64,000 bases of DNA from Bacilli bacterium (GCA_050174575.1 JBFXJT010000007.1:6648-70647), one strand, 5' to 3'; shown: positions 11,636-25,814, counted from the first letter of the stretch. Notes: generated by a model not told the origin, from the letters alone. A program made the numbers and translations.

Positions 11636-11653
11636 ATGTATGGTATTATACAT
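11636..11653 (-). promoter_or_regulatory. inverted repeat ATGTAT-N6-ATACAT overlapping the padR -10 (candidate PadR operator)
   Basis: Perfect 6-bp arms at 11636-11641 and 11648-11653. PadR proteins typically bind ATGT/ACAT inverted repeats. Confidence 0.45.
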
Positions 11654-11673
11654 TACATAGTATTGATTGTCAA
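11645..11673 (-). promoter_or_regulatory. sigma-A type promoter of the padR operon
   Basis: On the minus strand: TTGACA (11668-11673), 17-nt spacer, TATAAT (11645-11650). Confidence 0.7.
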
Positions 11674-11752: not shown

Positions 11753-13435
11753 TCACTTTCTAATTTTTATATGGTCTACTAAATTGTCATGAAAAACATA
11801 CTTATTGTCAATTGGCATATCACCCCATCGACTTATACACTGATCATAAATTTCTTCATAAACGTAAATCGACAAATCTTCATTTAATTTTACATCAATT
11901 TTTTGTTGTTCATTCAAAATATTGGAAATATAAATAATAAAATTTCCGGAAAAAAGTCTTACTATTTCGCCTTGTCTTAAATCATAATAAACATGAACTA
12001 AGTTGTGGCACTGGATAAAAGCTCCTGTTTCAACGGATTTAATCGTTGAAGAAAGGTATATTGTCTCTAAATCAAAACAATTTGCGAAAGCGGAAGCTTT
12101 TATTGTTTCACAACCTTCACCAAAAACAATTTCCAATAGACAATCTACATTGTCAAAAGCTCCAGTACTGATCTCCTTTGATGAAATGGTTAACTTATTA
12201 ATTGATGCATAATTAAAAGTTTTTGTTAGAACGACTTTTGCAGCAATATTTGCTTGATTTATTTTTGCATTAAAAAAGGCAAATTCAGAAATAGTATCAA
12301 CATGATTCCCGATAATCAAATTATCAAACGTTCGGCCAGCACATGAATATTCGCCAATTTTGTAAAAAACTTGAAAATCAGTTATGTCTGCATTACTTAG
12401 AATTAAATGATTTTGATTGTTTTCATTTACTACCAAAGAACCTTCTATTACATTATAAATGCTTTCATTACTAACTGTCATATTTTTTAGAGGGCAGCCA
12501 ATAAAGGCTTCTGCATTAACAAGAAGATTAGTTCCAAAAAAAACATTATTTAAATTAGAACAATTGAAAAAGGCATTTCTACCAAAAACGATATTTTGGT
12601 TGGGGAAGTTAATTTCTAAAAGATTAATACAGTTACTAAAGGCATTATCACCTATTTCTTTCATATTTGAAGTAAAATCAATTTTCGTTAATCCTGAATT
12701 TTCAAAAGCTTGGCTATTGATTATTTCAAGTGTTTCAGGAAAATTGATACTCGTTAATGAAGTACATCCAAAAAAGCAATTCCTACCAATTTCAGTTAAT
12801 TGTAAGGGAAGAGTAACGTTTGTTAACTGTAAACAATCATAGAATAAGTAGTCAGGAATAGTTGTGAAATTGTTTAAAAAAGTTACAGATGATATATCCG
12901 TGCTAGCGAAAGAAGAATCGGAAACTTCTACATCTTCTAGAACAATATTGCCTGATAATTTTGTACTCTGATATGCTCCAATCCCAATAAACTTAATATT
13001 TTCTGGGAGATTAATGACCGCTTCATTGTCATAAAACGCTTCTTGGCCTATATATTCAACACTATCAGCAATATTTACATTAAGCAGACCACTTTCAAAA
13101 AAAGCTTGATCTTCAATGATTTTTAGTCCCTCTTCGATAGTAAGGGATTCAATCGGTAAATTAACATCAGCCCCCCAGATACCATGATTCATCTTAAAAG
13201 CTTCACTTTTGATGGTAGAGACTTGTTTATTATTATGATAGGCAGGGATAAGGATATCTTTTACATAAAGCCCCGAAAATCCAGTCACTGCATAAGTATC
13301 ATCATCTAGGAGTTCAAACTCTAAATAATCATGGGGATTGGTACTTTTACTATAGCGCCCACCACATGCTGTCAACATTGTCAACAAAAAAAATATACTA
13401 ATAAAAAATGTAAAAAATAAAGTGACTTTCTTCAT
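11753..13435 (-). CDS. BspA-type leucine-rich-repeat surface lipoprotein
   Basis: 560 aa. Signal peptide with lipobox LLTMLTAC-GG. Many approx 23-aa repeats of the form I(G/P)xxAFxxCxxLxxIxhPxxL, e.g. IGRNCFFGCTSLTSINFPETLEIINSQAFENSGLTKIDF. Confidence 0.75.
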   Translation of the reverse strand: MKKVTLFFTFFISIFFLLTMLTACGGRYSKSTNPHDYLEFELLDDDTYAVTGFSGLYVKDILIPAYHNNKQVSTIKSEAFKMNHGIWGADVNLPIESLTIEEGLKIIEDQAFFESGLLNVNIADSVEYIGQEAFYDNEAVINLPENIKFIGIGAYQSTKLSGNIVLEDVEVSDSSFASTDISSVTFLNNFTTIPDYLFYDCLQLTNVTLPLQLTEIGRNCFFGCTSLTSINFPETLEIINSQAFENSGLTKIDFTSNMKEIGDNAFSNCINLLEINFPNQNIVFGRNAFFNCSNLNNVFFGTNLLVNAEAFIGCPLKNMTVSNESIYNVIEGSLVVNENNQNHLILSNADITDFQVFYKIGEYSCAGRTFDNLIIGNHVDTISEFAFFNAKINQANIAAKVVLTKTFNYASINKLTISSKEISTGAFDNVDCLLEIVFGEGCETIKASAFANCFDLETIYLSSTIKSVETGAFIQCHNLVHVYYDLRQGEIVRLFSGNFIIYISNILNEQQKIDVKLNEDLSIYVYEEIYDQCISRWGDMPIDNKYVFHDNLVDHIKIRK

Positions 13436-13518
13436 TAAAAATAAACTCCAATACTTTGAGAAATTTTTATACTTTCGATTTTTATATCATAATTGTTTTT
13501 AATCCATTTTATTTTTTG

Positions 13519-13556
13519 AAAAAAAGCTTTAATACAAATTAATTTTGCATTAAAGC
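13519..13556 (-). terminator. hairpin plus T-run after tRNA-Val
   Basis: Minus strand reads GCTTTAAT-(15 nt loop)-ATTAAAGC followed by TTTTTTTC. Confidence 0.5.
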
Positions 13557-13569
13557 GTTTGTCTCTAAA

Positions 13570-13644
13570 TGGTGGAATCAGAGGGGTTTGAACCCACGAC
13601 CCCTTGCACGTCAAGCAAGTGCTCTCCCGCTGAGCTATGATTCC
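13570..13644 (-). tRNA. tRNA-Val (anticodon GAC)
   Basis: Minus strand reads GGAATCATAGCTCAGCGGGAGAGCACTTGCTTGACGTGCAAGGGGTCGTGGGTTCAAACCCCTCTGATTCCACCA. Acceptor GGAATCA/TGATTCC, anticodon loop TTGACGT, T-loop GGTTCAAAC, encoded CCA. Confidence 0.9.
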
Positions 13645-13654
13645 AAGCAAAGTA

Positions 13655-13683
13655 ATTATACTAAAATGAAAAGCAAATTGCAA
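13655..13683 (-). promoter_or_regulatory. promoter for tRNA-Val
   Basis: On the minus strand: TTGCAA (13678-13683), 17 nt, TATAAT (13655-13660). It ends about 10 nt upstream of the tRNA 5' end. Confidence 0.6.
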
Positions 13684-13731: not shown

Positions 13732-14469
13732 CTATTCATTCAATTGCTTTCTTCTAATTAATTCTAAAACAGCAAAAGATGCTACATCTTCGGCATATTT
13801 CTTTTGACCGAATCCAGCATCATACCCCAATTCTTTTGCAAGTTCATGAGTTATTCTGGCTCCTCCGGCAATCAAAAGGACTTGATCTCTAATCCCTTCC
13901 GCTTCTAACATTTCCACAAGTTCTAATAAATTTTTCAAATGAACGTCTTTTTGTGTTACTGTTTGGCTAACAAGCAAAACATCCGCTTTAACTTCTTTAG
14001 CTTTTTTCACAAAAGCTTCATTGGAAACTTGACTACCTAAATTGTAAGTTTTGATGTTTTTATAGCGTTCTAAACCATAATGACCAGCAAAACCCTTCAT
14101 GTTCATAATGGCATCGATCCCAACAGTATGGGCATCAGTTCCTGTAGAAGCACCAATAAAAACAATTTCTCTTTTCAATTCGTTTTCAATCATTATTTCT
14201 ATTTCTTCTTTTGTATAAGTCGGAGTTGTGACATCACTAACATGAATAAGATTAGGATCAACAGAAAAAGGAATGGATCCATAAATAACATAAAAGCTAA
14301 AATTATCGCCCAAGGTCTCAGCTGCAACAACTTGAGGATCAATCAAACCCATTTGTTTTGCAAGAGACTTAGCGCATTCAATTCCTAGCGTGTTATTAAC
14401 AAGCGGTAAAGAAAAACTTATTTGGACTTTACCATCATTTGATGTATCGCCATAAGGTTTAATCAACAT
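13732..14469 (-). CDS. kamE: lysine 5,6-aminomutase beta (B12-binding) subunit
   Basis: 245 aa. Cobalamin-binding Rossmann domain with the base-off His motif STGTDAHTVGIDAIM and ...LLIAGGA. Overlaps kamD by 11 nt. Confidence 0.85.
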   Translation of the reverse strand: MLIKPYGDTSNDGKVQISFSLPLVNNTLGIECAKSLAKQMGLIDPQVVAAETLGDNFSFYVIYGSIPFSVDPNLIHVSDVTTPTYTKEEIEIMIENELKREIVFIGASTGTDAHTVGIDAIMNMKGFAGHYGLERYKNIKTYNLGSQVSNEAFVKKAKEVKADVLLVSQTVTQKDVHLKNLLELVEMLEAEGIRDQVLLIAGGARITHELAKELGYDAGFGQKKYAEDVASFAVLELIRRKQLNE

Positions 14470-16015
14470 GTTCTTCCTCCTCTAAAGCATCCATAACAAC
14501 ATTAACATAATTGTGGTGCTTTAAAAAAACGCCTTCTAATCCTTTTCCTCCAGTAAAACTGCGTTTGATGTCCGCAAATACGCCGTTTTCTAAAGCTTTG
14601 AATAGCGACATTTGTTCGATTTCTTGCAATAATTGATGAGCTTCGTTCAAAACATTTTTAGCTCTTTTTGCCATGATTCCATTTTGTTTATATTCAATTT
14701 CATCACCGAATGACTTCATCGAATTAGCAATCAATTTTGCATTTTCAATTGCTAAGTAGCGATCAGACATAAATGGTGTATGAATGGCTTCCGTCATCAT
14801 CCCCAACAGATGAATTGATTGATTAGAGATGATTGTTGCCATATTGAACATTGTGTTTTGCATATAAGCTCGGAAAATATTCCCAGTTATATGTTTTGTT
14901 GGTGGCATATATTTTAAAGGAGCCTCAGGGAAAATTTCTCTAGCCATTTGAGCTTGGGCTAATTCATACAAAAAACTATTTTCAATTGTCGGATCAATTT
15001 CAAAAGCATGGCCTAAACCCATTAAATTTTTTGGGAGGTGAGCTTTTATGGCGAATTGTTCATTAATAAATTGTGAAGCTAAAACGGTATGAGCTTGCGA
15101 ATAGGCATCAGCTGTTGTTAAGTAATTATCTTCACCGGTATTAATGATGATTCCCGCTAAAGCATTAATCCTTCTTGAAAAATTTTGATCAATTAGCGTT
15201 CTTTGCATATTAATATCACGGAAAATTATGCCATAAAGACTATCATTGAGTAAAACGTCGAGCCTTTCCAAAGCAGCCATTGCGGCGATTTCCGGCATAC
15301 ATAAACCCGATGCATAATTGACTAATTTTATATACCTTTTTTCCTGATGAGAAACCTGATCAAGTGCTTCACGCATAATGCGAAAGTTTTCTTGGGTGGC
15401 ATAAGTTCCGCCAAATCCCTCAGTTGTCGCCCCAAAAGGAACAAAATCTAATAAAGACTGCCCTGTTGACCTAATAACGGCAATAATATCAGCACCAGCC
15501 TTGGCAGCAGCTTTAGCTTGGATGACATCTTCATAGATGTTACCCGTTGCTACAATAACATAAATTTCAGTTGCTTTAGGTGGATATAGAGTAAACAAAG
15601 CTGCTCTTTTTTGTTTGTTTTGTTTAATTTTTTCTATTTGTTTTTGAACATATGGCTGTAAACTTAATTTAATATTTTTAGGAGATGCTAACGGAAAATC
15701 CGTTAATTTCATATCACCATTTAGGACGCTAGCCACCAAATCATTTAATGTTTTTTTAGTAGCAATCAAGGCACTCCCTAGATAACTGGAAACACCCAAA
15801 GTCAAATCGCCACTTTCTTTAACTTGGTTGACTAGTACATTAGGGATTGGCACGTCGAAGTCATCGACGCCATCAATTCCTAATAATCGAACAACAGTCC
15901 GCTCAATGGCAACGGTCGTGCGTTCGTTGATAAAGTTCTGAACATCATCAGCAATATGCAAGGCACATTGGCGACATTCATTGATAATATTTTGATCTAA
16001 ATGGAATTTATTCAT
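14459..16015 (-). CDS. kamD: lysine 5,6-aminomutase alpha (large) subunit
   Basis: 518 aa. Size, position immediately upstream of kamE and the operon context with kamA/kdd/kce support the call. Sequence-level recognition by eye is weaker. Confidence 0.8.
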   Translation of the reverse strand: MNKFHLDQNIINECRQCALHIADDVQNFINERTTVAIERTVVRLLGIDGVDDFDVPIPNVLVNQVKESGDLTLGVSSYLGSALIATKKTLNDLVASVLNGDMKLTDFPLASPKNIKLSLQPYVQKQIEKIKQNKQKRAALFTLYPPKATEIYVIVATGNIYEDVIQAKAAAKAGADIIAVIRSTGQSLLDFVPFGATTEGFGGTYATQENFRIMREALDQVSHQEKRYIKLVNYASGLCMPEIAAMAALERLDVLLNDSLYGIIFRDINMQRTLIDQNFSRRINALAGIIINTGEDNYLTTADAYSQAHTVLASQFINEQFAIKAHLPKNLMGLGHAFEIDPTIENSFLYELAQAQMAREIFPEAPLKYMPPTKHITGNIFRAYMQNTMFNMATIISNQSIHLLGMMTEAIHTPFMSDRYLAIENAKLIANSMKSFGDEIEYKQNGIMAKRAKNVLNEAHQLLQEIEQMSLFKALENGVFADIKRSFTGGKGLEGVFLKHHNYVNVVMDALEEEEHVD

Positions 16016-16016
16016 A

Positions 16017-17015
16017 TTAATTACTCTTTTCTAAAACATCGTATATCGGTAAAGTTATTCTATCTTCTATTTTATTACGAAAATTTGCTAAAGAAATGAC
16101 ATTTCCAGTAGGAGAGAATGGATTAAAAGTTAAGGCAACAAGATTTATTGGTTGAAGTACAAAAATTTTTTGTTTTAAAAGCAACAAATGTTTTAACAAA
16201 ATATCATCAGCTAATAAATGTGTAGGACTATTAACGATTAAATCACAATTTAAGTTTTGACGATTGTCAATTAAGGCTTTTAAAAATGATGGACTAACCG
16301 CTTTAGGAACATATACATAACGAATATTTTGCTTAATTTGGGAAATTATGTCTGCTCCACAATCTAGTGTTGTCGTTCTTTTTAAGAATGACATTTTATT
16401 TTGATCATCAATTAAAACAATGTCATCCCATTCTTTTAAGTCAAGTGTCCCATTATATTTTGGCAAATTGAATAATTTGATGGTGTTTAAAGTATGTAGA
16501 ACAATTTTGTCAAGTTGATAGGAAAAACTAGAACCAACACAAAAAATCGTGGCATCACAAATTTGTGCAAGGGTTGTTCGGGAAAAAGCTCCATCAATCA
16601 ATATTTTTTGACATTCATATTCTTTTAATTTATCAATAATCATCCGCATTGATTGAATTGTCGATGGTCCCCCAACAAGACAGTTGCCGGCTTTGGTAAT
16701 TTTGATTAACACAATGGGACCTAATGCGGTCACAATCTTTGTTTCTTCGATAATGTCATATTGGGCTTCACATTCATCCAAACAATTTTTAGCGGTTGCA
16801 ACAATGGTGTTTGTGGAAGTAAAAATCCTTGGTTTCGGCAAGAAAGTGATTTGATCAATTTTTTCGCCATCAAGGCCAATAGAAGAAATACCCGTTGTAA
16901 TCGATTGATATTGTGTTAACAAAAAATTTAAAACTGTTGTTTTCCCTGCATTTTTTGCATTGCCAACTGTACAAATTACTTGATAATCTTCAAGTAATGA
17001 AGTTAATGCTTTAAT
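16017..17015 (-). CDS. P-loop NTPase between kamA and kamDE (putative aminomutase-associated/reactivase-like ATPase); start codon unresolved
   Basis: The track ORF starts at TTG 16922. The same frame stays open up to 17078 and encodes a Walker A motif (YQVICTVGNAKNAGKTTVLNF) upstream of that TTG. There is no ATG, GTG, TTG or CTG in that stretch. ATT at 17015 is the best candidate start. Confidence 0.55.
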   Translation of the reverse strand: MKALTSLLEDYQVICTVGNAKNAGKTTVLNFLLTQYQSITTGISSIGLDGEKIDQITFLPKPRIFTSTNTIVATAKNCLDECEAQYDIIEETKIVTALGPIVLIKITKAGNCLVGGPSTIQSMRMIIDKLKEYECQKILIDGAFSRTTLAQICDATIFCVGSSFSYQLDKIVLHTLNTIKLFNLPKYNGTLDLKEWDDIVLIDDQNKMSFLKRTTTLDCGADIISQIKQNIRYVYVPKAVSPSFLKALIDNRQNLNCDLIVNSPTHLLADDILLKHLLLLKQKIFVLQPINLVALTFNPFSPTGNVISLANFRNKIEDRITLPIYDVLEKSN

Positions 17016-18259
17016 GCTCGTTCTCGTCTTTCTAAATGTTTGGGTTCGATTGCTCTTTGTTTGCCGGCAAGTAATCCACTAACACCTTCAGCTTCTTTAC
17101 TAGTACTGCAATTTGGATTTTCATGATAATCAGTTGGTTCATTGTAAGTGGTAATAACACCTTCATAATTTCTCAAAACAACTTTTCCCGGTGCTTGTGA
17201 AATTACATAGTTAGGCATAACGGGGATTTTACCTCCACCACCAGGAGCATCAACGACAAATGTCGGAACGCATAACCCACTAATGTGACCACGTAAACCT
17301 TCGATAATTTCAATACCTTTACTAATTGGTGTTCGGAAATGCTCAATACCAAGAGAAAGATCACATTGGTATAAATAGTATGGGCGAACACGCATTTGCA
17401 CTAAGCACGTGCATAATTTTCGCATTGTATCGACACAGTCATTAACGCCTCTTAAAAGAACACTTTGATTTCCCAAAGGAATTCCGGCATCAGCCATTTT
17501 CGCAATAGCCTTGGCACTTTCTTCAGTTATTTCATCATAATGGTTAAAATGAGTATTTACCCAAATAGGATGATATTTTTTTAACATTGAAACAAGTTCG
17601 TCCGTAATTCTTTGAGGCATAACAACGGGTGTCCTTGTGCCAATGCGGATAATTTCTACATGGTCAATTGCTCTTAAACGAGAAATGATTGATTCCAATT
17701 TCGCATCACTCATTAATAAAGCATCACCACCGGATAACAAGACATCTCGAACAGCAGGTGTTTTGCGAATATACTCAATTGCTTGTTCAATGCGATCACT
17801 TGGTAAATCATGGTCTGTTTGTCCTGCAAAACGTCTTCTTGTACAATGACGGCAATACATACTACACATATCCGTAATCAAAAACAAAACACGGTCAGGA
17901 TAACGATGTGTTAATCCAGGTACAGGTGAATCCTTATCTTCATCAAGCGGATCAACAAGATCGTTCTTGCCAATGATCATTTCATTAATGCTCGGGATAG
18001 CCTGTTTTCTAATTGGGCAATCAACGTTGTCTGGATCGATTAAACACAAAAAATAAGGTGTAATGGCCATCCGAAAACGTGATAGTACTTCAGTAATCTG
18101 TTGTTCTTCTTCGCTCGTTAAATTGATATATTTTTTAAGTTGCAAGACATCGGTAATCCGGTTTCGAACCTGCCAATGCCAGTCTTGCCAATCTGTTGAA
18201 GAGACATTAGGAAAATACTTTTGTTTTCTTTCTAAATATCTTTCATTTACTATTAACAT
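17003..18259 (-). CDS. kamA: L-lysine 2,3-aminomutase (radical SAM)
   Basis: 418 aa. Radical-SAM cluster motif CSMYCRHCTRR and a KamA-type N-terminal region (WQDWHWQVRNRI). AAGGAG RBS. Confidence 0.95.
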   Translation of the reverse strand: MLIVNERYLERKQKYFPNVSSTDWQDWHWQVRNRITDVLQLKKYINLTSEEEQQITEVLSRFRMAITPYFLCLIDPDNVDCPIRKQAIPSINEMIIGKNDLVDPLDEDKDSPVPGLTHRYPDRVLFLITDMCSMYCRHCTRRRFAGQTDHDLPSDRIEQAIEYIRKTPAVRDVLLSGGDALLMSDAKLESIISRLRAIDHVEIIRIGTRTPVVMPQRITDELVSMLKKYHPIWVNTHFNHYDEITEESAKAIAKMADAGIPLGNQSVLLRGVNDCVDTMRKLCTCLVQMRVRPYYLYQCDLSLGIEHFRTPISKGIEIIEGLRGHISGLCVPTFVVDAPGGGGKIPVMPNYVISQAPGKVVLRNYEGVITTYNEPTDYHENPNCSTSKEAEGVSGLLAGKQRAIEPKHLERRERALKH

Positions 18260-18262
18260 AAT

Positions 18263-19303
18263 TTACTCCTTCGGTTGATATCTTTTTACAAATAGATCAT
18301 AAAGCGGTTTTGATTCCCTTAAAAGGCTCAAGGTTAAATCGGCGTGTCCCGGAGTATAACCGTTACCGATAATCATGGTAGCTTCACTGGCAATGCCTTC
18401 AGCACCTAAAGCAGCTTTTGTGAAAGAAGTTGCCATACTGAAGAAATAAACAATACCGCTTGGTTTGGTTGCTAAAATCGATGTCATTTCTGTATTTGGA
18501 ACATTAACGACATTAATTGTGACATCAACTTGTTGATTATTATTGACTCGCATGATTTCTTGATAGACTGCCATCGGATCTCTAGCATCTGCTACAATGA
18601 TTTCGTCACAGACTCCGAGTGATTGCAAATCTTCAAGTTTATTGGTATTACTTATTAGCGCTATGATTTTGCCATTTGGACCGGCGTTCTTGTGAGCTTG
18701 ATAGCAGCATAATACACCACTTTTACCAGCTGCCCCTAGCACCAAAACAGTATTGTTAGGTTTAACCAATTTTTCAACTTGTGCAGGTGCACCAGCAACA
18801 TCTAAAGCAGATAATACTAAATGTTCACTTAAGTCATTGGGGATTTTCGCATAAATGCCCGTAGCAAATAAGATTGCTTCTGCTTCAACATCAACTTGAT
18901 CTTTATGCAAATGAATTTGTTTGATCGCTTTTATTTTTAATGGTGTTAGTGATAAAGAAACTAAAGTCACAATTTTATCACCAATTTTTAAATCGCATTT
19001 TAAGTCTTTTCCTATTTGTTTAATAACACCTAAAAGCATTCCCCCACTACCTGTTACAGGGTTTTGCATTTTTCCGCGTTTATTGACAATATCCATAATC
19101 ATCGTTTTCATGGCTTCCACATCACTATTAGTTGCTTGTTTAATTTGGGTAAAAGATGCGGAATCGATATTTAATGTTTTTACATCAATTAAAATTTCAT
19201 TGTCTTGGCAAATCATCGTATTATCTAATTGATCTGCAGCTTGAGGGAGAACACCTACCGGACTAATGACACGGTGAGTTCCATAAGGGCATGGCTTTTT
19301 CAT
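18263..19303 (-). CDS. kdd: L-erythro-3,5-diaminohexanoate dehydrogenase
   Basis: 346 aa. Rossmann motif VLVLGAAGKSG. Sits between kce and kamA as in known lysine fermentation clusters. Confidence 0.8.
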   Translation of the reverse strand: MKKPCPYGTHRVISPVGVLPQAADQLDNTMICQDNEILIDVKTLNIDSASFTQIKQATNSDVEAMKTMIMDIVNKRGKMQNPVTGSGGMLLGVIKQIGKDLKCDLKIGDKIVTLVSLSLTPLKIKAIKQIHLHKDQVDVEAEAILFATGIYAKIPNDLSEHLVLSALDVAGAPAQVEKLVKPNNTVLVLGAAGKSGVLCCYQAHKNAGPNGKIIALISNTNKLEDLQSLGVCDEIIVADARDPMAVYQEIMRVNNNQQVDVTINVVNVPNTEMTSILATKPSGIVYFFSMATSFTKAALGAEGIASEATMIIGNGYTPGHADLTLSLLRESKPLYDLFVKRYQPKE

Positions 19304-20127
19304 ATTTTCTTCTCCATTCTTAATATTTTTCTAGTTTCTTCGGGATTGGCAATTTCCCGATTGTATTTTTTTGCAATTTGAACGACTTTCGCTACTAAAG
19401 CGGCATTCGATGGAGCTAATACTCCTTTGTCAATGTAAATATTGTCTTCTAAACCAACGCGAACATGACCACCATGCATAATGGAAAGTTCTGCAAGGGA
19501 AAATTCAAAACGACCGATTCCGGCAACACTATATGTCGCATCATTTGGAATGCTGTCCTTTAAAAACAGAAAATCCCGTTCTTCTCCAGTCATTCCACCG
19601 TTAACTCCTAAAACAAAACTAAAATGGTAGGGTGGATTAATAAAGCCTTTTTTCGCAAGTCTTTGTATCATATCAATATGACCTTTTTCAAAGCATTCAA
19701 GTTCTTTATAAATATGACGACTTTCCAAAACATTGGCAAAATACTTAATATCGTTTTCTGTATTAACAAAAATATCATCACCACCAAAGTTTAATGTTCC
19801 ACAATCAAGCGTCGCCATTTCAGGATTTAGAGTAACCGGACCTAAACGCTCATCACGGCTCATGCCAACGGCTCCTCCAGTTGATACTTGAACGATGACA
19901 TCGGGACATTTAGCTTTGATTGCTGTAATGATTTCTTTAAAACGTTTGGCATCTTGCGTCGGCGTTCCATCATCAAAACGGGCATGCAAGTGAATGATTG
20001 ATGCTTTCGCCAAATAAGCCTGATAAGCACTTTCAGCCATCTCTGAAACAGTATAGGGAACATTGGGATTATGGTCTTTAGTAACTTCCGCACCAGAAAT
20101 AGCACAAGTAATGATTAATTTTTCCAT
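19300..20127 (-). CDS. kce: 3-keto-5-aminohexanoate cleavage enzyme (BKACE/DUF849 family)
   Basis: Start moved to ATG 20127 ([25 protein letters not shown] upstream). The track start at 20160 would be an 11-aa extension inside kal. TIM-barrel BKACE features ...[11 protein letters not shown]... Confidence 0.85.
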
Positions 20128-20507
20128 GTTTTCCTCTGAAGAGCTTTTGGTACAACACAAGTACCCTTTGCAGAAGCAACCAAAATTGGTTCATCTAAAA
20201 AATCAGCTGCTGAAGGAACAATATTTGGTTTAGCTTCGATTACTTTGTAACATGCAAAAGTCATTTTTCTTGAAGTGTTTCCCACTTCAACAATTTCACC
20301 ATGCACTTCCAAAAAGTCACCAGCATAAACCGGAGCCAAAAAATCTACTTGCTCGTAAGCCCGAAATAATCCTTCATCTCCATCATGGCGAATGAGCAAT
20401 TCTGTCGCAACATCGCCAAATAAAGCTAAGATTCGAGCTCCATCCACAAGATTTCCTCCATAATGGGCATCGCTTAAGGACATTCGTAAACGGATTATTG
20501 TTTTCAT
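20115..20507 (-). CDS. kal: 3-aminobutyryl-CoA ammonia-lyase (hot-dog fold)
   Basis: 130 aa small hot-dog protein between the CoA-transferase genes and kce, matching the size and position of Kal. Confidence 0.7.
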
Positions 20508-21151
20508 ATTGAAACTCCTTTCATTGGCAATACTTGATCAATAATTAAAGTTGCTTCAGTTACAGCGACAACTTCATCAATCGAATAATTAGGATGAACT
20601 TCTAATAGATGTAACCCATCGTCACGAACCTCCATAACGGCCATTTCTGTAACGATTAAGTTAGCTTGTTTATAAGCAGTAAGTGGTAAAACACAACGTT
20701 TTAATATTTTTGATTTTCCATTATTTGTATGTTGCATCGCAATAATAACCTTTTTAGCACCAACAACCAAATCCATGGCACCACCCATTCCCGGAACTTT
20801 CTTTCCTGGAATAATCCATGAAGCAAGGCTACCTTCTTCATCAACTTCAAGAGCACCTAGGACAGTGACATCAACATGACCACCACGAATAAACATAAAG
20901 GAAGTTGCAGAATCAATAAACGATCCTCCCGGCATAATCGTTGCTTTCATTCCTCCGGCATTAACGATATCACTTTGTTCTTCTGTTAATGGGCCAATAC
21001 CAATTATTCCATTTTCTGATTGTAAAATGACATGTTTGGTCGGAGGAATAAAATTTGCCACTAAAGTAGGAGTACCAATACCCAAATTGACAATATCGCC
21101 ATCTTTAAGTTCTAAAGCTATTCGACTAGCAATAATAAACTTTTCGTCCAT
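20504..21151 (-). CDS. atoA: 3-oxoacid/acetoacetate CoA-transferase subunit B
   Basis: 215 aa. Catalytic-Glu motif [12 protein letters not shown]. Confidence 0.9.
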
Positions 21152-21798
21152 TATTCCACCTCCATAACGATGTAATCAACTAACGGAAAAGGTGTAATGA
21201 CTGCTTCAGGATCTATTTCTTCAAGTTTTTGCTGGCATACAGCAATCACTAATGATGCAGCTGTAGCCATGATTGGATTAAAATTACGCATTGTTTTGCG
21301 ATATGCAAGATTTCCATATCGATCGCAAATCGCTCCACCAATTAAAGCTAAGTCAGCAAATAACGGTTCTTCTAGCAAATAATCAATCCCTTGAACCTGG
21401 ATTACTCTTTTCCCTTCTTGAACAATTGTTTTTAGTCCAGTTGGGGTCAAAACACCACCTAGTCCCGCACCTGCAGCACGGATTTGTTCGACCAATGTCC
21501 CTTGAGGAACTAAAACAACTTCTAGTTTACCTTCTTGCATCAACTTCCCGACAGTTGGATTTGTTCCAATATGGGATGCAATCAATTTTTTAACCCGATT
21601 AGCAACAATCAATTTTCCAACTCCTCGGTCTTCAAATCCTCCGTCATTACAAATGATTGTAAAATCGGTAAAACTTGTTTCTAAAATTAAATCAATTAAG
21701 TAATCAGGACTTCCGTTTGCTAAAAAACCACCAACCATAATCGTCATGCCGGATTTAAGGTGACTTTTAAAATTTTCCTTACAAATAAAACCTCGCAT
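21151..21798 (-). CDS. atoD: 3-oxoacid/acetoacetate CoA-transferase subunit A
   Basis: 215 aa. [16 protein letters not shown] and ...IGTNP... typical of the A subunit. TAATG junction with atoA. Confidence 0.9.
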
Positions 21799-21807
21799 AT
21801 TTCCTCC

Positions 21808-22224
21808 TTACTTAGGGGGCATAATAGTCGCTTCACCGACTATCACCACTTCGTTTTTGTCGTTTTTTGCAACGCAATCAAAAACAACACGATTTTTTTC
21901 CATAATGATTTCTTTTACAGTCACAAAAGCCGTTATTGTATCATTCAAATAAACTGGCTTAATAAACTTTAAACTTTGGAAAGTATAGATACTTCCTAAA
22001 CCAGGTAATTCAGTACCTAAGATGGCACTAAAAAGAGAGCCAACAAGCATACCATGAACTATCCTCGTTTTAAAAATCGTTGTTTTTGCATAATCTTCAT
22101 TTACATGAGCGGGGTTAAAGTCACCAGAAACTGAGGCAAAATTGTTAACATCAGTTTCTGTAAAACTCTTTGTTATTGAACTTGTTTGTCCAATAAACAA
22201 TTCGTTAATTGTCAATTTTTTCAA
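21808..22224 (-). CDS. MaoC-like (R)-specific enoyl-CoA hydratase/dehydratase
   Basis: Hydratase-2 motif FASVSGDFNPAHV. Start reassigned to in-frame TTG 22224 (MKKLTINELFIGQ), 7 nt after AAAGGAG. The track's 39-aa N-terminal extension runs through the riboswitch terminator. Confidence 0.8.
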   Translation of the reverse strand: MKKLTINELFIGQTSSITKSFTETDVNNFASVSGDFNPAHVNEDYAKTTIFKTRIVHGMLVGSLFSAILGTELPGLGSIYTFQSLKFIKPVYLNDTITAFVTVKEIIMEKNRVVFDCVAKNDKNEVVIVGEATIMPPK

Positions 22225-22241
22225 GAAATAACTCCTTTCAT

Positions 22242-22273
22242 AAAAAAAGCTGTTGTCTTTTAAAGACAACAGC
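22242..22273 (-). terminator. riboswitch-controlled intrinsic terminator
   Basis: Minus strand reads GCTGTTGTCT-TTAAA-AGACAACAGC, a perfect 10-bp stem, followed by TTTTTTT. Confidence 0.85.
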
Positions 22274-22435
22274 GCTCCATTTCCCAAATGGCAGTGGATA
22301 AGGCATTCCTTGTCCACCAAGACTTTAATGAATGAACTCATTAAATCTTTCGGCGATATTTCCCTTTATTTGTCACATTGGGAGTTCATTCCCTTAGCAT
22401 TGACAAATTACCCTAAATAACGCACCTCTGTGTAT
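22266..22435 (-). promoter_or_regulatory. lysine riboswitch (L-box) aptamer
   Basis: Minus-strand RNA: ATACACAG AGGTGCG...AGGGTA ATTTGTCA...TGACAAAT AAAGGGAAATATCGCCGAAAG ATTTAATGA...TCATTAAAGTCT TGGTGGACAAGGAATGCCTTATCCAC TGCCATTTGGGAAATGG AGCG CTGTTGT. Conserved L-box blocks and five-helix layout recognised by eye. Confidence 0.85.
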
Positions 22436-22446
22436 TAACTAATACT

Positions 22447-22475
22447 ATTATACCGAAACAAAAATGGCTTGTCAA
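22447..22475 (-). promoter_or_regulatory. consensus sigma-A promoter of the lysine operon
   Basis: On the minus strand: TTGACA (22470-22475), 17 nt, TATAAT (22447-22452). Confidence 0.75.
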
Positions 22476-22516: not shown

Positions 22517-24157
22517 TTAATCGTTTTGTTTGGTAAGATAGAAATATTTAGTATCCGCTTCAGCCATATGACCAACAATAAAATTATCTACTAAAAACGA
22601 TGCTAAAACGATACTTTTTATTTCACCATTTTGATATTTCTTTTTCATATCATTTGCTTTTAAAATAATGTCGCGATGCAGAGCACAATGTTCATCATAA
22701 TTAGGATAATCTAAATTATACATTACTTTTTCTTCAAAATAAAAATGTTGAGAAATGTGTTTGATGATTTTTTCAATTTGATTGATAATTTTTTCATAGG
22801 GAACATTTGTTTGAAACATAAAAATTAAGTTGTTTCCCAATTCAATAATCTCTCGATGTTGATTATCTATATCAACATTGCCACTACTCCATTCATTATG
22901 CCATTCAAAATACGGTGAAGTTGATAAAGATTCCATGGAGAGGCTCTCTGAAGAGCTTGCCACACGGTTACGTCCCTGTTCTTTTGCACAGTACATTGCA
23001 TCATCCGTACGTTTATACCAACTTCTTAATGACTCGTTAGGAATCATTTGGGCAACACCAAAACTTGCCGTTAATTTGGAAATAATGGGAAACCTGAAAC
23101 CTGCAACAGCAATTCGAATTTTATCAGCAACTTTTACAGCATCTTCCACTTTTGTATCTGGCAATACGATAACAAATTCTTCGCCTCCAAGACGAGACAA
23201 ATAGTCTGTTTTTCTAATTGATGATTTTAACAGTTGGGAAAAACTTACTAAAATATCATCACCAACAGGATGGCCCCAAGTATCATTTACAAATTTAAAA
23301 TGATCAATATCAGCAATAATCATTGATAAAGGCAAAGCTGTATTGTTGGCTTTTTCCATTGTTTCATTAGTAATTTTATGAAAGAAGTGACGATTGTAAA
23401 GTCCGGTAAGGTTATCAATTGTCATTTCAAATTCAAGACGGTTAGCTAATTCTACTGTTTTAGTGATATCGCGTGCAGACGCATAAATAAATCTTCCAAA
23501 TTGTTTTGCCCGCCACTCTAAAAAATGATATTGTCCATTTTTATCTTTATAACGATTAACAAAATTATTAATTTCTTCACCCTTAAGTAAATTTTTCATC
23601 ACTTCTCTTGTAGAAGAAATATCTTCCTCATGCATAAATTCAAAAAAAGTACGGGTTGTTAAATCAGCAAAGTTGGCTCCAACTAGGTTTTCAAAATAAT
23701 CATTTGTTTTAATAAAATGACCATCCATATCTGAGACCACTAAAAGGTCAAGGTTAACATCGATTAATCCTTTTAATAATTCCTCTTCTTTCATGGTTTT
23801 AGTGATATCTTCATAAAAGCAACCAAAGTGATGACAATCAATGGGAAAGATGGTTGCTTTAACCCATGAATGATTAATAGGTAAAAAGCAATTGCATGTT
23901 TTAACCTCTTTTTGATTTACTGCTTTCCTAAAGTTTTGATACCATTCATTGTTAAAATGATTATTAACATTTGCTGTTGATAAATAACTTTTTCCTATTA
24001 ATGCTTCTTTTGGAAGTGGAATAAACCGTTCAAACGCTTCGTTTACTCCGGAAAAATAGTAGTCAACAGGTTCTTGTTTTTCGTTAAAGATAATTTCATG
24101 AAAAGAACAAGGAATAGGAGATTCTTTAAAAAAGTCTAAAAAATTACAGTTATTCAT
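22517..24157 (-). CDS. PAS-PAS-GGDEF diguanylate cyclase with C-terminal hemerythrin-like domain
   Basis: 546 aa. GGDEF domain: LTGLYNRHFF, DIDHFKFVNDTWGHPVGD, RLGGEEFVIV. C-terminal approx 130 aa carry bacteriohemerythrin ligand motifs: IDNQHREII, HFYFEEKVM, DEHCALHRDI, VGHMAEADTKY. Confidence 0.85.
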   Translation of the reverse strand: MNNCNFLDFFKESPIPCSFHEIIFNEKQEPVDYYFSGVNEAFERFIPLPKEALIGKSYLSTANVNNHFNNEWYQNFRKAVNQKEVKTCNCFLPINHSWVKATIFPIDCHHFGCFYEDITKTMKEEELLKGLIDVNLDLLVVSDMDGHFIKTNDYFENLVGANFADLTTRTFFEFMHEEDISSTREVMKNLLKGEEINNFVNRYKDKNGQYHFLEWRAKQFGRFIYASARDITKTVELANRLEFEMTIDNLTGLYNRHFFHKITNETMEKANNTALPLSMIIADIDHFKFVNDTWGHPVGDDILVSFSQLLKSSIRKTDYLSRLGGEEFVIVLPDTKVEDAVKVADKIRIAVAGFRFPIISKLTASFGVAQMIPNESLRSWYKRTDDAMYCAKEQGRNRVASSSESLSMESLSTSPYFEWHNEWSSGNVDIDNQHREIIELGNNLIFMFQTNVPYEKIINQIEKIIKHISQHFYFEEKVMYNLDYPNYDEHCALHRDIILKANDMKKKYQNGEIKSIVLASFLVDNFIVGHMAEADTKYFYLTKQND

Positions 24158-24168
24158 ACTTTGCCCCT

Positions 24169-25011
24169 CTATTTACTTAGTATTTGTTTGACATAATTAG
24201 GCAATACCAAGGAAGCTTGGTGAATAGAAAAATTATAATACTTTAAATTTAATGAGTCAATAAAGGATTGACTTCCCTTAATAATCTGAGGATTTTCTGT
24301 ATTAGAAGCAAATCCAAACAACCAATGGCCGCTTGGATAAGTGGGGATGAATGCTTGGTATACTGTTGCTGTGTGAAAAATCTCTCTAAGTTTTTCATGT
24401 GCTCGTAACATTTCTTGGCGCGTTTTTTCAAAGTAGGGACTTTCGTGCTGATTAACAAGAATTCCATTCGGCTTTAAAATGTTAGCACAATTTTTGTAAA
24501 ATTCACGGCTGAACAATCCTTCGCCTGGTCCTATGGGATCAGTCGAATCGATTACAATTAAATCATAAGTCTCGTGTGTTTGCTTAACAAATGCACTTCC
24601 ATCTGTAAATATTAATTTTACTCGAGGATCCGTTAATTTTGCTGCTGTTTGTGGCAGCAGCTCTTGGCATTTACGAACAACTATTTCATCAATTTCCACC
24701 ATAGTAATGGACTTGATAGTTGGGTATTTGCATAATTCTCGGACTGAACCACCATCACCACCACCAATCACCAATACATTGGAAATGGATGGGTTAACTG
24801 ACAAAGGAAAATGAATCATCATTTCATGATAAATAAATTCGTCTTTTTCGTTGGCCATCATGATGTCATCAAGAGTAAAAAAACGCCCCAATTCATAAGA
24901 ATCATAAAAATCTATTTTTTGGAAGGGGGTCTTTTGAGAAAATAAATGCTCTTTTATTTTTATCGAAAACTGAATATTATCCGTCCAGTATTCACTAAAC
25001 CATTTATCCAT
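24169..25011 (-). CDS. speE: spermidine synthase (polyamine aminopropyltransferase)
   Basis: 280 aa. VLVIGGGDGGSVRE and ...DSTDPIGPGEGLF. Confidence 0.9.
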   Translation of the reverse strand: MDKWFSEYWTDNIQFSIKIKEHLFSQKTPFQKIDFYDSYELGRFFTLDDIMMANEKDEFIYHEMMIHFPLSVNPSISNVLVIGGGDGGSVRELCKYPTIKSITMVEIDEIVVRKCQELLPQTAAKLTDPRVKLIFTDGSAFVKQTHETYDLIVIDSTDPIGPGEGLFSREFYKNCANILKPNGILVNQHESPYFEKTRQEMLRAHEKLREIFHTATVYQAFIPTYPSGHWLFGFASNTENPQIIKGSQSFIDSLNLKYYNFSIHQASLVLPNYVKQILSK

Positions 25012-25814
25012 TATTTCTCCAACTTCATTCGCGGAATATTCATTCCATAAAATATTTCTGCCATTTCAGCGTTAATTTCTTGTCTGATTTTCGCAACTTC
25101 TTCTTCTGTCAAATCCGTACTTTTGATATTGAATAAATAATTATCTAATATAAGGGTATTTAGCATCATTTTTGTGTGAAAAATATTGGTATAAGCCAAA
25201 TTCACATCGTAAGTTGTATACTTTGATAAAACCTCATCGGGGATAAAGTCTTGAATAGAATCAATGTCATGATCAAGGAAATGCTTTTCACCGTTTAAAT
25301 CTCTAGTAAACCCACGAATGCGATAATCAATTGTAATTATATCCGAGTCAAATTGATTAATTAAGTAATTTAATGTTTTTAATGGAGAAATTTCTCCACA
25401 TGTGGAAACATCAATATCAACTCGAAAAGTACTGATGGGACTGCCGGGATAACTTTCAGGATATGTATGAACAGTCAAATGACTTTTATCTAAATGGCCA
25501 ACAACGGATTCTTTTGCGGGAATTTCGACTTGTTCGTTTTTCCCATGATACTCGGAAATTAAAACAGTAACGCTTGCCCCTTGGGGTTCATAATCTTGGG
25601 TCGCTACGTTTAAAATCTTCGCATCAATCATTTTAGTAACTTCGGTTAAAATCTTTTTTAAGCGGGTACTATTGTACTGCTCATTGATATATTCAATATA
25701 AGCTTTTCTTTCAAGGTCATCTCTAGTATAGCAAATATCATATATATTAAAACTCAATGTTTTTGTAAGATTGTTAAAACCATAAAGTTTTATTGGATGA
25801 CGTTTTCTTACCAT
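25011..25814 (-). CDS. speD: S-adenosylmethionine decarboxylase proenzyme, long E. coli-type form
   Basis: 267 aa. LYGFNNLTKTLSFNIYDICY, DYEPQGASVTVLISE and the processing site HLDKSHLTVHTYPE closely parallel enterobacterial SpeD. Confidence 0.9.
   Translation of the reverse strand: MVRKRHPIKLYGFNNLTKTLSFNIYDICYTRDDLERKAYIEYINEQYNSTRLKKILTEVTKMIDAKILNVATQDYEPQGASVTVLISEYHGKNEQVEIPAKESVVGHLDKSHLTVHTYPESYPGSPISTFRVDIDVSTCGEISPLKTLNYLINQFDSDIITIDYRIRGFTRDLNGEKHFLDHDIDSIQDFIPDEVLSKYTTYDVNLAYTNIFHTKMMLNTLILDNYLFNIKSTDLTEEEVAKIRQEINAEMAEIFYGMNIPRMKLEK

Follow-up and report, generated by a model that had tools for sequence, protein, structure and literature searches.

The leader of a ten-gene operon in a 64-kb window of a Bacilli bacterium assembly (GCA_050174575.1, JBFXJT010000007.1:6648-70647, the window being the whole stretch of DNA analysed) carries a lysine riboswitch (L-box), and its sequence and computed folds indicate that it is very probably a transcriptional lysine ON riboswitch of the direct overlap type. 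In this architecture, the 3' strand of helix P1 of the aptamer also belongs to the 5' arm of an intrinsic terminator, and the genes placed behind it are those of lysine fermentation. All the leader features and the operon lie on the minus strand, and the coordinates given below are positions of the window.

Mutually exclusive pairing of helix P1 and the terminator

The terminator scan and the folding both gave an intrinsic terminator at 22242-22273, composed of an 11-bp stem (22273-22263 with 22259-22249), a 3-nt loop and a U7 tract at 22248-22242. Its arms, GCUGUUGUCUU and AAGACAACAGC (22273-22249), can equivalently be drawn as 10 bp with a 5-nt loop, the original prediction having given a stem of 10 bp. 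Helix P1 is formed by the 5' strand AUA(C)ACAG, read from the sequence at 22428-22435 with C22432 bulged, and by the 3' strand CUGUUGU at 22266-22272, identified as the switching segment by its sequence, its pairing and three-way covariation. Given the bulged C22432, the seven pairs proposed beforehand are all standard (G22428-C22272, A22429-U22271, C22430-G22270, A22431-U22269, A22433-U22268, U22434-G22267 and A22435-U22266); the Rfam alignment of P1 takes in the inner four pairs only and marks the outer two as non-canonical. The P1 3' strand lies within the 5' arm of the terminator (22273-22263), which includes the six P1 3' nucleotides of Rfam (6/6).

Because seven nucleotides are shared, P1 and the terminator cannot coexist, and the mutual exclusion that the original prediction had deduced was reproduced in constrained folds. 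When the aptamer and P1 were enforced, no terminator was formed and at most a 4-bp remnant was possible. When either terminator arm was blocked, the P1 3' strand paired with the P1 5' region only, the terminator 3' arm had no upstream partner, and no alternative antiterminator was found in these folds; an antiterminator uncoupling P1 from the terminator had been named beforehand as evidence against the ON wiring.

The nearest-neighbour energies of the leader were -41.7 kcal/mol for the core P2-P5, -44.3 kcal/mol for the core with P1 and -57.6 kcal/mol for the core with the terminator. The contribution of P1, with its seven pairs and a bulge, is about -2.6 kcal/mol, and that of the terminator hairpin is -15.9 kcal/mol when added to the folded core and -14.5 kcal/mol on its own. 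The ensemble folded without constraints gave a probability of 0.94-1.0 to 10 of the 11 terminator pairs compared with 1e-4 or less to the P1 pairs, and the predicted default state is therefore termination. Since the terminator is approximately 13 kcal/mol more stable than P1, a difference that lysine cannot offset at equilibrium, the control must be kinetic and co-transcriptional.

Identity of the aptamer

That the leader element is a lysine riboswitch is practically certain. The Rfam family RF00168 (Lysine) matched positions 22438-22262 with 81.1 bits (gathering score 30, E = 1.3e-19), and this 177-nt match, a five-helix junction P1-P5, covers the model positions 1-182 of 182 and is not truncated; it is the single riboswitch of the Rfam scan of the window. 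With our own covariance model R1, built from the window and nine Rfam-confirmed loci, the aptamer reached 162.9 bits. The AGGTGCG and GGGAAATATCGCCGAA blocks are present in the leader, as are all the conserved junction nucleotides (AGAGGNGC, GCCGAA, UGG, CUGNCA and UGGAGNGCU), aligned to the upper-case consensus positions. The conserved blocks and the five-helix layout on which the original prediction was founded are thus borne out by a significant, full-length covariance-model match and by the covariation among 16 homologs described below.

The L2 loop AUGAAC (22384-22389) and the L3 loop GUUCAU (22332-22337) are perfect complements and would form the kissing contact of the aptamer. Their complementarity is part of a 10-nt run, a length reached by none of 200 shuffles, and in most homologs both loops have other sequences with the complementarity kept; the evidence from this longest-run shuffle test is convincing in the case of the window and of a few homologs, the test being underpowered for the AT-rich ones.

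Conservation of the overlap upstream of kdd

For the comparison with other bacteria, 15 proteins of the L-erythro-3,5-diaminohexanoate dehydrogenase Kdd were aligned and 80 Kdd genomic loci were fetched from many phyla. The L-boxes confirmed with Rfam at nine of these loci were used together with that of the window for the covariance model, which was then scanned over the window and the 80 loci (1.29 Mb). The scan gave 16 L-boxes, all upstream of kdd and on its strand, belonging to the window, seven contigs of Izemoplasmatales or Bacilli-type metagenome-assembled genomes (MAGs), an Acholeplasmataceae MAG, Bacillota, Clostridium and Proteocatella MAGs, a Fusobacterium genome and three Flavonifractor genomes. 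The first gene behind these L-boxes is maoC-like, kal or kce, the maoC-like gene being the first also in L005, L012 and L046.

In the alignment of the 16 homologs, which was fitted to the covariance model and thereby favours the structure, 89.8% of the cells of the five helices P1-P5 are paired, compared with 39-51% when the partners are slid, and 45 of the 52 pairs vary on both sides; none of 500 shuffles matched these pairing and covariation values. In 14 of the 16 L-boxes, the best hairpin followed by a U-tract has four to six of the six P1 3' nucleotides in its 5' arm, and the stem sequences of these overlapping terminators vary widely. Anchored on P1, the alignment displays a three-way covariation: the P1 3' strand varies in concert with both of its partners, the P1 5' strand and the 3' arm of the terminator. 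Where position 3 of the P1 3' strand is G, its P1 5' partner is C and its terminator partner C or U, and an A at this position faces U in both partners; position 6 forms G-C, U-A, A-U or U-G pairs with the terminator arm. RNAalifold applied to the MAFFT alignment recovered the outer eight terminator pairs, the inner stems being too divergent to align.

These data bear on the hypothesis of a constitutive attenuator or a decayed riboswitch, in which the terminator would always win or lysine would have no effect, the operon being governed by promoter regulation or RNA stability. The large stability advantage of the terminator, the very low probability of P1 and the short kinetic window would all fit such a leader. 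However, ON switches under kinetic control typically show the same energy imbalance, and a decayed element would not retain five helices with compensatory changes, the L2-L3 complementarity and a three-way covariation across phyla. In addition, ten conserved genes would be silenced if the leader behind this perfect promoter terminated permanently, and we consider the hypothesis as a whole very improbable.

Three contigs of the locus collection deserve a separate mention. No L-box was found at the Bacteroidales loci among the 80 scanned, apart from the contig L001 (CAZYFI010000027.1), labelled 'uncultured Bacteroidales', whose Kdd is 90% identical to that of the window and which has the maoC-atoDA-kal-kce-kdd order and a near-identical L-box and terminator; since no other Bacteroidales locus has an L-box, this contig is probably mis-binned. 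The Kdd homologs of a Promethearchaeota MAG (L061, an Asgard archaeon) and of a 'beta proteobacterium' MAG (L069), with 56-57% identity, have no L-box, and their placement could result from horizontal transfer or from a binning error.

Position of the terminator in a blind sample of L-boxes

As a blind control, L-boxes were collected in a single metagenome scan, using a generic L-box pattern to which the window does not conform, and the 120 hits yielded 96 unique usable L-boxes. By the same script, the large majority of them had their best terminator 20-90 nt downstream of P1 (OFF layout), a layout found in at least 84 of the 91 non-catabolic L-boxes. In five of the 96, the start of the strongest terminator falls at -3 to -5 relative to P1 and all six P1 nucleotides are in its 5' arm; a tblastn search with the window proteins revealed that exactly these five, and no others of the 96, precede kal-kce-kdd. 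The overlap is therefore present in the five catabolic L-boxes of the blind sample (5/5), as in the 14 kdd-linked ones, versus two (strict) or seven (lenient) of the 91 others, and the leniently flagged non-catabolic L-boxes precede asd, lysA, dapB or transporter genes and have a stronger downstream terminator or a poor U-tract. Fisher's exact test of overlap against catabolic genes gave p = 3e-7 for the blind sample and p = 3e-17 for all data.

The direct-overlap architecture thus tracks gene function, as the ON model predicts, and a chance co-occurrence of the overlap and the catabolic genes is rejected by the conservation and the blind control. The wiring is the reverse of that of the usual OFF switches, as had been claimed from the sequence of the window: the overlap is conserved and covarying in the homologs, and the L-boxes of biosynthetic and transport genes do not have their strongest terminator at P1. 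Where the terminator lies with respect to P1 was, in the control sample, an almost perfect predictor of whether the target genes are catabolic or belong to biosynthesis or transport, which would be useful for L-box annotation. As a side observation, the aptamer of another metagenome contig, L165, is 14% distant from that of L107, which is of the catabolic ON type; L165 is probably another catabolic member, and five may be a slight underestimate among all 120 hits.

The layout of the control sample is also what speaks for an ordinary lysine OFF switch as in lysC, in which P1 would promote termination or block translation, OFF logic being by far the commonest for L-boxes. Such logic requires, however, a terminator compatible with P1, or a helix sequestering the Shine-Dalgarno sequence, and an antiterminator using the P1 3' strand. 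In the window, the sole terminator contains the P1 3' strand and no additional hairpin with a U-tract was found between this terminator and the start codon; moreover, a substrate repressing its own catabolic operon would be physiologically senseless. With no terminator compatible with P1, the OFF reading was rejected, and we give it next to no credence.

A variant of the P2 internal loop in catabolic L-boxes

The loop-E region of P2 was compared at anchored positions between 21 catabolic L-boxes (the 16 linked to kdd together with L107, L151, L157, L189 and L197) and 95 others. The canonical loop-E AGUA/GAAAGG occurs in none of the 21 catabolic L-boxes, and a comparable departure is seen in one of the 95 others. 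The base before GUA is G in 17 catabolic L-boxes, U in two, C in two and A in none, compared with A in 79 and G in one of the non-catabolic L-boxes. The offset of GUA from the A of AGAGG is +17 or +18 in all 21 and +19 in 75 of the 95, and the 3' side of the loop reads GAAGG or GAAUG in 15 of the 21 and is of the GAAAGG type in 77 of the 95, the catabolic internal loop being one nucleotide shorter on both strands. In the window, the 5' side of the loop is AGGGUA (22409-22414), with the variant GGUA of loop-E AGUA one nucleotide closer to AGAGG, and the 3' side is AAAGGG (22362-22367); GUA is kept, as are the GG receptor and the L4 AA, and the A before GUA is replaced by G.

In the B. subtilis lysC aptamer, the GG in P2 is the receptor for the L4 adenines, and this P2-L4 contact is critical for organising the lysine pocket (PMC3082890). 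The loop-E (sarcin-ricin) motif between P2 and P2a has been described as highly conserved and not membership-defining. An analysis of aptamer distances and trees placed 12 catabolic tips in a pure AT-rich clade and the GC-rich catabolic aptamers elsewhere, a picture confounded by base composition and short length. Several hypotheses could be issued for the variant: it could raise the lysine threshold or speed up folding, the switch firing only at lysine excess in the short kinetic window, or it may merely be inherited. The idea that catabolic L-boxes form a distinct aptamer subclass with a functional loop-E variant, rather than ordinary L-boxes on another platform, is tentative and in our judgement rather unlikely; the signature itself may be new. 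It is a lead on how an aptamer is tuned for ON versus OFF duty and, were the variant functional, the window would offer a compact natural template for lysine-ON biosensors.

The same variant raises the question of the ligand, since an identical ON architecture could serve an aptamer that senses beta-lysine, a lysine derivative or a dipeptide, or lysine at a very different threshold. The loss of AGUA and the shortened loop in the whole catabolic set, next to the GG receptor of the contact that organises the lysC ligand pocket, would be in agreement with this. Against it, the junction nucleotides dominating the Rfam consensus (AGAGGUGC, GCCGAA, UGG, CUG.CA and UGGAG.GCU) are all present in the window, the RF00168 score is far above the gathering score with the GG receptor and the L4 AA retained, and lysine, as the substrate of the pathway, is the most economical inducer. 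A different ligand or threshold is improbable.

Promoter and translation start

The sigma-70-type promoter of the leader is located at 22447-22475, with TTGACA at 22475-22470, a 17-nt spacer and TATAAT at 22452-22447. It matched 12 of the 12 consensus positions in the promoter scan, as first proposed, and would place the transcription start at approximately 22440. The exact TTGACA-17-TATAAT pattern occurs twice in the 64-kb window versus 0.08 expected from shuffles; the only other perfect one, at 11645-11673 (minus strand), lies just 5' of the gene of a 107-amino-acid PadR-family regulator (11624-11301).

Translation of the first gene starts at TTG 22224-22222, preceded by the Shine-Dalgarno sequence AAAGGAG at 22238-22232 (22222-22238 together), and the product translated from there aligns with MaoC-type hydratases from residue 4. 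The in-frame ATG 22341 of an automatic open reading frame (ORF) call was rejected as the start, falling inside the aptamer. The gap between the terminator U7 (22248-22242) and the start codon is 18 nt. In the fold with P1 enforced, which corresponds to readthrough, AGCUUUUUU, taken from the last part of the terminator 3' arm and from the U-tract, is base-paired with AAAGGAGUU of the Shine-Dalgarno region at 22230-22251, forming a weak 9-bp hairpin with many A-U and G-U pairs. This pairing is probably incidental, and translational control via an anti-Shine-Dalgarno sequence was rejected, this weak pairing being the only one found.

Proposed mechanism

According to the mechanism that we propose, the strong promoter would start the RNA approximately 216 nt before the first start codon, and P2-P5 would fold first, along with the L2-L3 kissing contact. 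The nascent P1 3' strand CUGUUGU would then have the choice of two partners. Without lysine, the next 17 nt would emerge and the 11-bp hairpin (about -15 kcal/mol) would displace the P1 5' strand, the RNA polymerase terminating at U7 and leaving the operon off. Once lysine occupies the five-way junction, P1 would stay closed until the polymerase is past the U-tract, and transcription would enter maoC-like, atoDA, kal, kce, kdd, kamA, kamB and kamDE. In such a kinetic control, lysine would have to lock P1 during the transcription of the remaining ~24 nt, and it would induce its own fermentation to butyrate, acetate and ammonia.

Several points weigh against this ON mechanism. P1 is weak and only ~24 nt separate its completion from the end of the U-tract, which could give a small dynamic range in the absence of a polymerase pause. 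Lysine binding and lysine-dependent termination are computational predictions, as is the transcription start, and no experimental test of any natural lysine ON switch was found in the searchable literature, where a search for papers naming a riboswitch together with the kal or kce enzymes also gave no match. The aptamers of this group depart from the canonical AGUA/GAAAGG next to the P2-L4 contact, and their affinity or even their specificity could differ. Translation of the first gene might be damped in the readthrough RNA by the weak pairing between its U-tract and the Shine-Dalgarno region.

Finally, two of the 16 homologs, L077 and L060, do not have the simple overlap of P1 and terminator. 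The L-box upstream of kal in Fusobacterium sp. oral taxon C10 (L077:8494-8727) is without a P1-overlapping terminator, and a 16-bp long-range helix encloses the whole aptamer, the P1 5' strand and the conserved AGAGG being paired with the downstream CCUCUAUUUUUU (strands AUAAUAAAAAAUAGAGG with CCUCUAUUUUUUAUUA); judged from these pairings, L077 is a different expression platform. In a Clostridium sp. UBA4746 MAG (L060:9379-9470), two hairpins lie 3' of the aptamer: one that includes the P1 3' strand and has a weak U-tract behind it (GGUUUUAUUU), then a canonical terminator (AAGGCAUUGAAAAUUCAGUGCCUUUUUU). By eye, the 3' arm of the first hairpin and the 5' arm of the second terminator can pair at 9 of 10 positions, and a three-tier relay that would still give ON logic is possible.

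The lysine-fermentation operon and its neighbours

Behind the leader, ten genes follow one another without interruption on one strand, all in the same direction and with short or overlapping junctions, in the order maoC-like, atoD, atoA, kal, kce, kdd, kamA, kamB, kamD, kamE. The first encodes a 138-amino-acid MaoC-like (R)-specific enoyl-CoA hydratase (21808-22224; NF006045 hydratase domain, E = 4.6e-41, a match below the cutoff for the full bifunctional protein). The next two, within 20504-21798, encode the CoA-transferase subunits A (atoD, 21798-21151; TIGR02429, 197.3 bits, cutoff 128.5) and B (atoA, 21151-20504; TIGR02428, 286.3 bits, cutoff 243.55). They are followed by kal for the 3-aminobutyryl-CoA ammonia lyase (20115-20507; NF052388, 194.3 bits, cutoff 160), kce for the 3-keto-5-aminohexanoate cleavage enzyme (19300-20160; NF052387, 411.9 bits, cutoff 382), kdd (18263-19303; NF052381, 258.9 bits, cutoff 200) and kamA for the lysine 2,3-aminomutase (17003-18259; TIGR03820, 611 bits, cutoff 525.4). 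The distal part begins with the reactivase subunit gene kamB (16922-16017, within 13732-16922; NF052386, 256.8 bits, cutoff 210) and ends with the genes of the alpha and beta subunits of lysine 5,6-aminomutase, kamD (16015-14459; NF052384, 838.3 bits, cutoff 600) and kamE (14469-13732; NF052385, 368.7 bits, cutoff 280), the latter closing the operon.

The lysine-fermentation enzymes of the operon are all above the NCBIfam equivalog cut-offs. By these family assignments the operon is a complete lysine-fermentation set, which agrees with the earlier claim that the regulated genes catabolise lysine. Kdd is 100% identical to a protein of 'MAG: Bacilli bacterium', and its nearest relatives are from Izemoplasmatales and other Mycoplasmatota MAGs. 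The leader would thus place a full lysine-to-butyrate pathway under a single RNA switch in uncultured, wall-less Izemoplasmatales-type Bacilli.

Upstream, the operon is bounded by a PAS-GGDEF-hemerythrin gene (22517-24157, minus strand) with its own terminator at 22518-22497, the protein being a putative diguanylate cyclase that would sense oxygen or iron; beyond it come homologs of speE and speD (24169-25814). The downstream boundary is a tRNA-Val(GAC) gene at 13644-13570, on the strand of the operon and 88 nt past the kamE stop, and an 82-amino-acid ORF overlapping it (13435-13683) is spurious.

Comparison with known systems

Certain glycine, adenine and lysine ON riboswitches bury pieces of the terminator stem (Barrick and Breaker 2007, PMC2258182, with Rodionov et al. 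2003 cited for lysine), and in section 13 of Mukherjee et al. 2017 (PMC5584792, with reference to Serganov and Patel 2009) positive regulation is attributed to the L-boxes that precede kal and kce in C. sticklandii, F. nucleatum and Thermoanaerobacter. This literature agrees with the statement in the original prediction that activating L-boxes on kamA-type operons had been predicted and little tested. The kind of switch is thus already known, lysine ON switches on catabolic genes having been predicted since 2003, and what is new here is the lineage and the operon layout. Rodionov and co-workers reportedly predicted lysine ON LYS elements in 2003 (NAR 31:6748) by comparative genomics, including those of Thermoanaerobacter tengcongensis, Fusobacterium nucleatum and Clostridium sticklandii. 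The leader of the window resembles the predicted elements by its aptamer family, by the pathway (kal, kce and kam genes) and by the burying of a part of the terminator stem upon the proposed ligand binding. It differs by its host, an Izemoplasmatales-like 'Bacilli' MAG, and by an operon of ten genes under one switch led by maoC-like and atoDA, whereas the published ones start with kal, kal-kce or a pspF-type regulator gene.

With the B. subtilis lysC L-box, described as an OFF switch reportedly by Grundy and by Sudarsan in 2003, the leader has in common the five-way junction, the L2-L3 kissing, the P2-L4 contact and attenuation through the fate of P1. In lysC, however, P1 is an anti-antiterminator, the terminator lies downstream and lysine leads to termination, whereas in the window the P1 3' strand is the terminator 5' arm; in addition, lysC has the canonical loop-E motif and the window the GGUA variant. 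A functional parallel in wiring is drawn with the B. subtilis pbuE (ydhL) adenine riboswitch, an ON switch understood as being under kinetic, co-transcriptional control. In both, the terminator 5' arm makes direct use of the P1 3' strand without any extra helix, the logic is ON (as predicted here), and the terminator is much more stable than P1. Unlike the window, pbuE has a purine three-way junction aptamer with another ligand, and it controls an efflux pump and not a catabolic operon.

Natural lysine ON switches seem experimentally unexamined, and artificial lysine-ON devices are still being evolved in metabolic engineering, where the natural ones are assumed only to repress. The engineered lysine-ON riboswitches derived from Lactobacillus plantarum (PMC10974012) were selected from natural OFF switches, the natural ones being regarded as repressors only. 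With its perfect promoter, its 177-nt aptamer and a directly overlapping terminator without extra helices, the leader described here is a minimal and clean example, suited to a first biochemical test and possibly to use as a biosensor part. Lysine-ON riboswitches are also said to have been engineered by Zhou and Zeng in 2015. In the engineered switches, as is proposed for the window, lysine activates through an L-box aptamer; unlike them, the leader of the window would be a natural and compact ON design.

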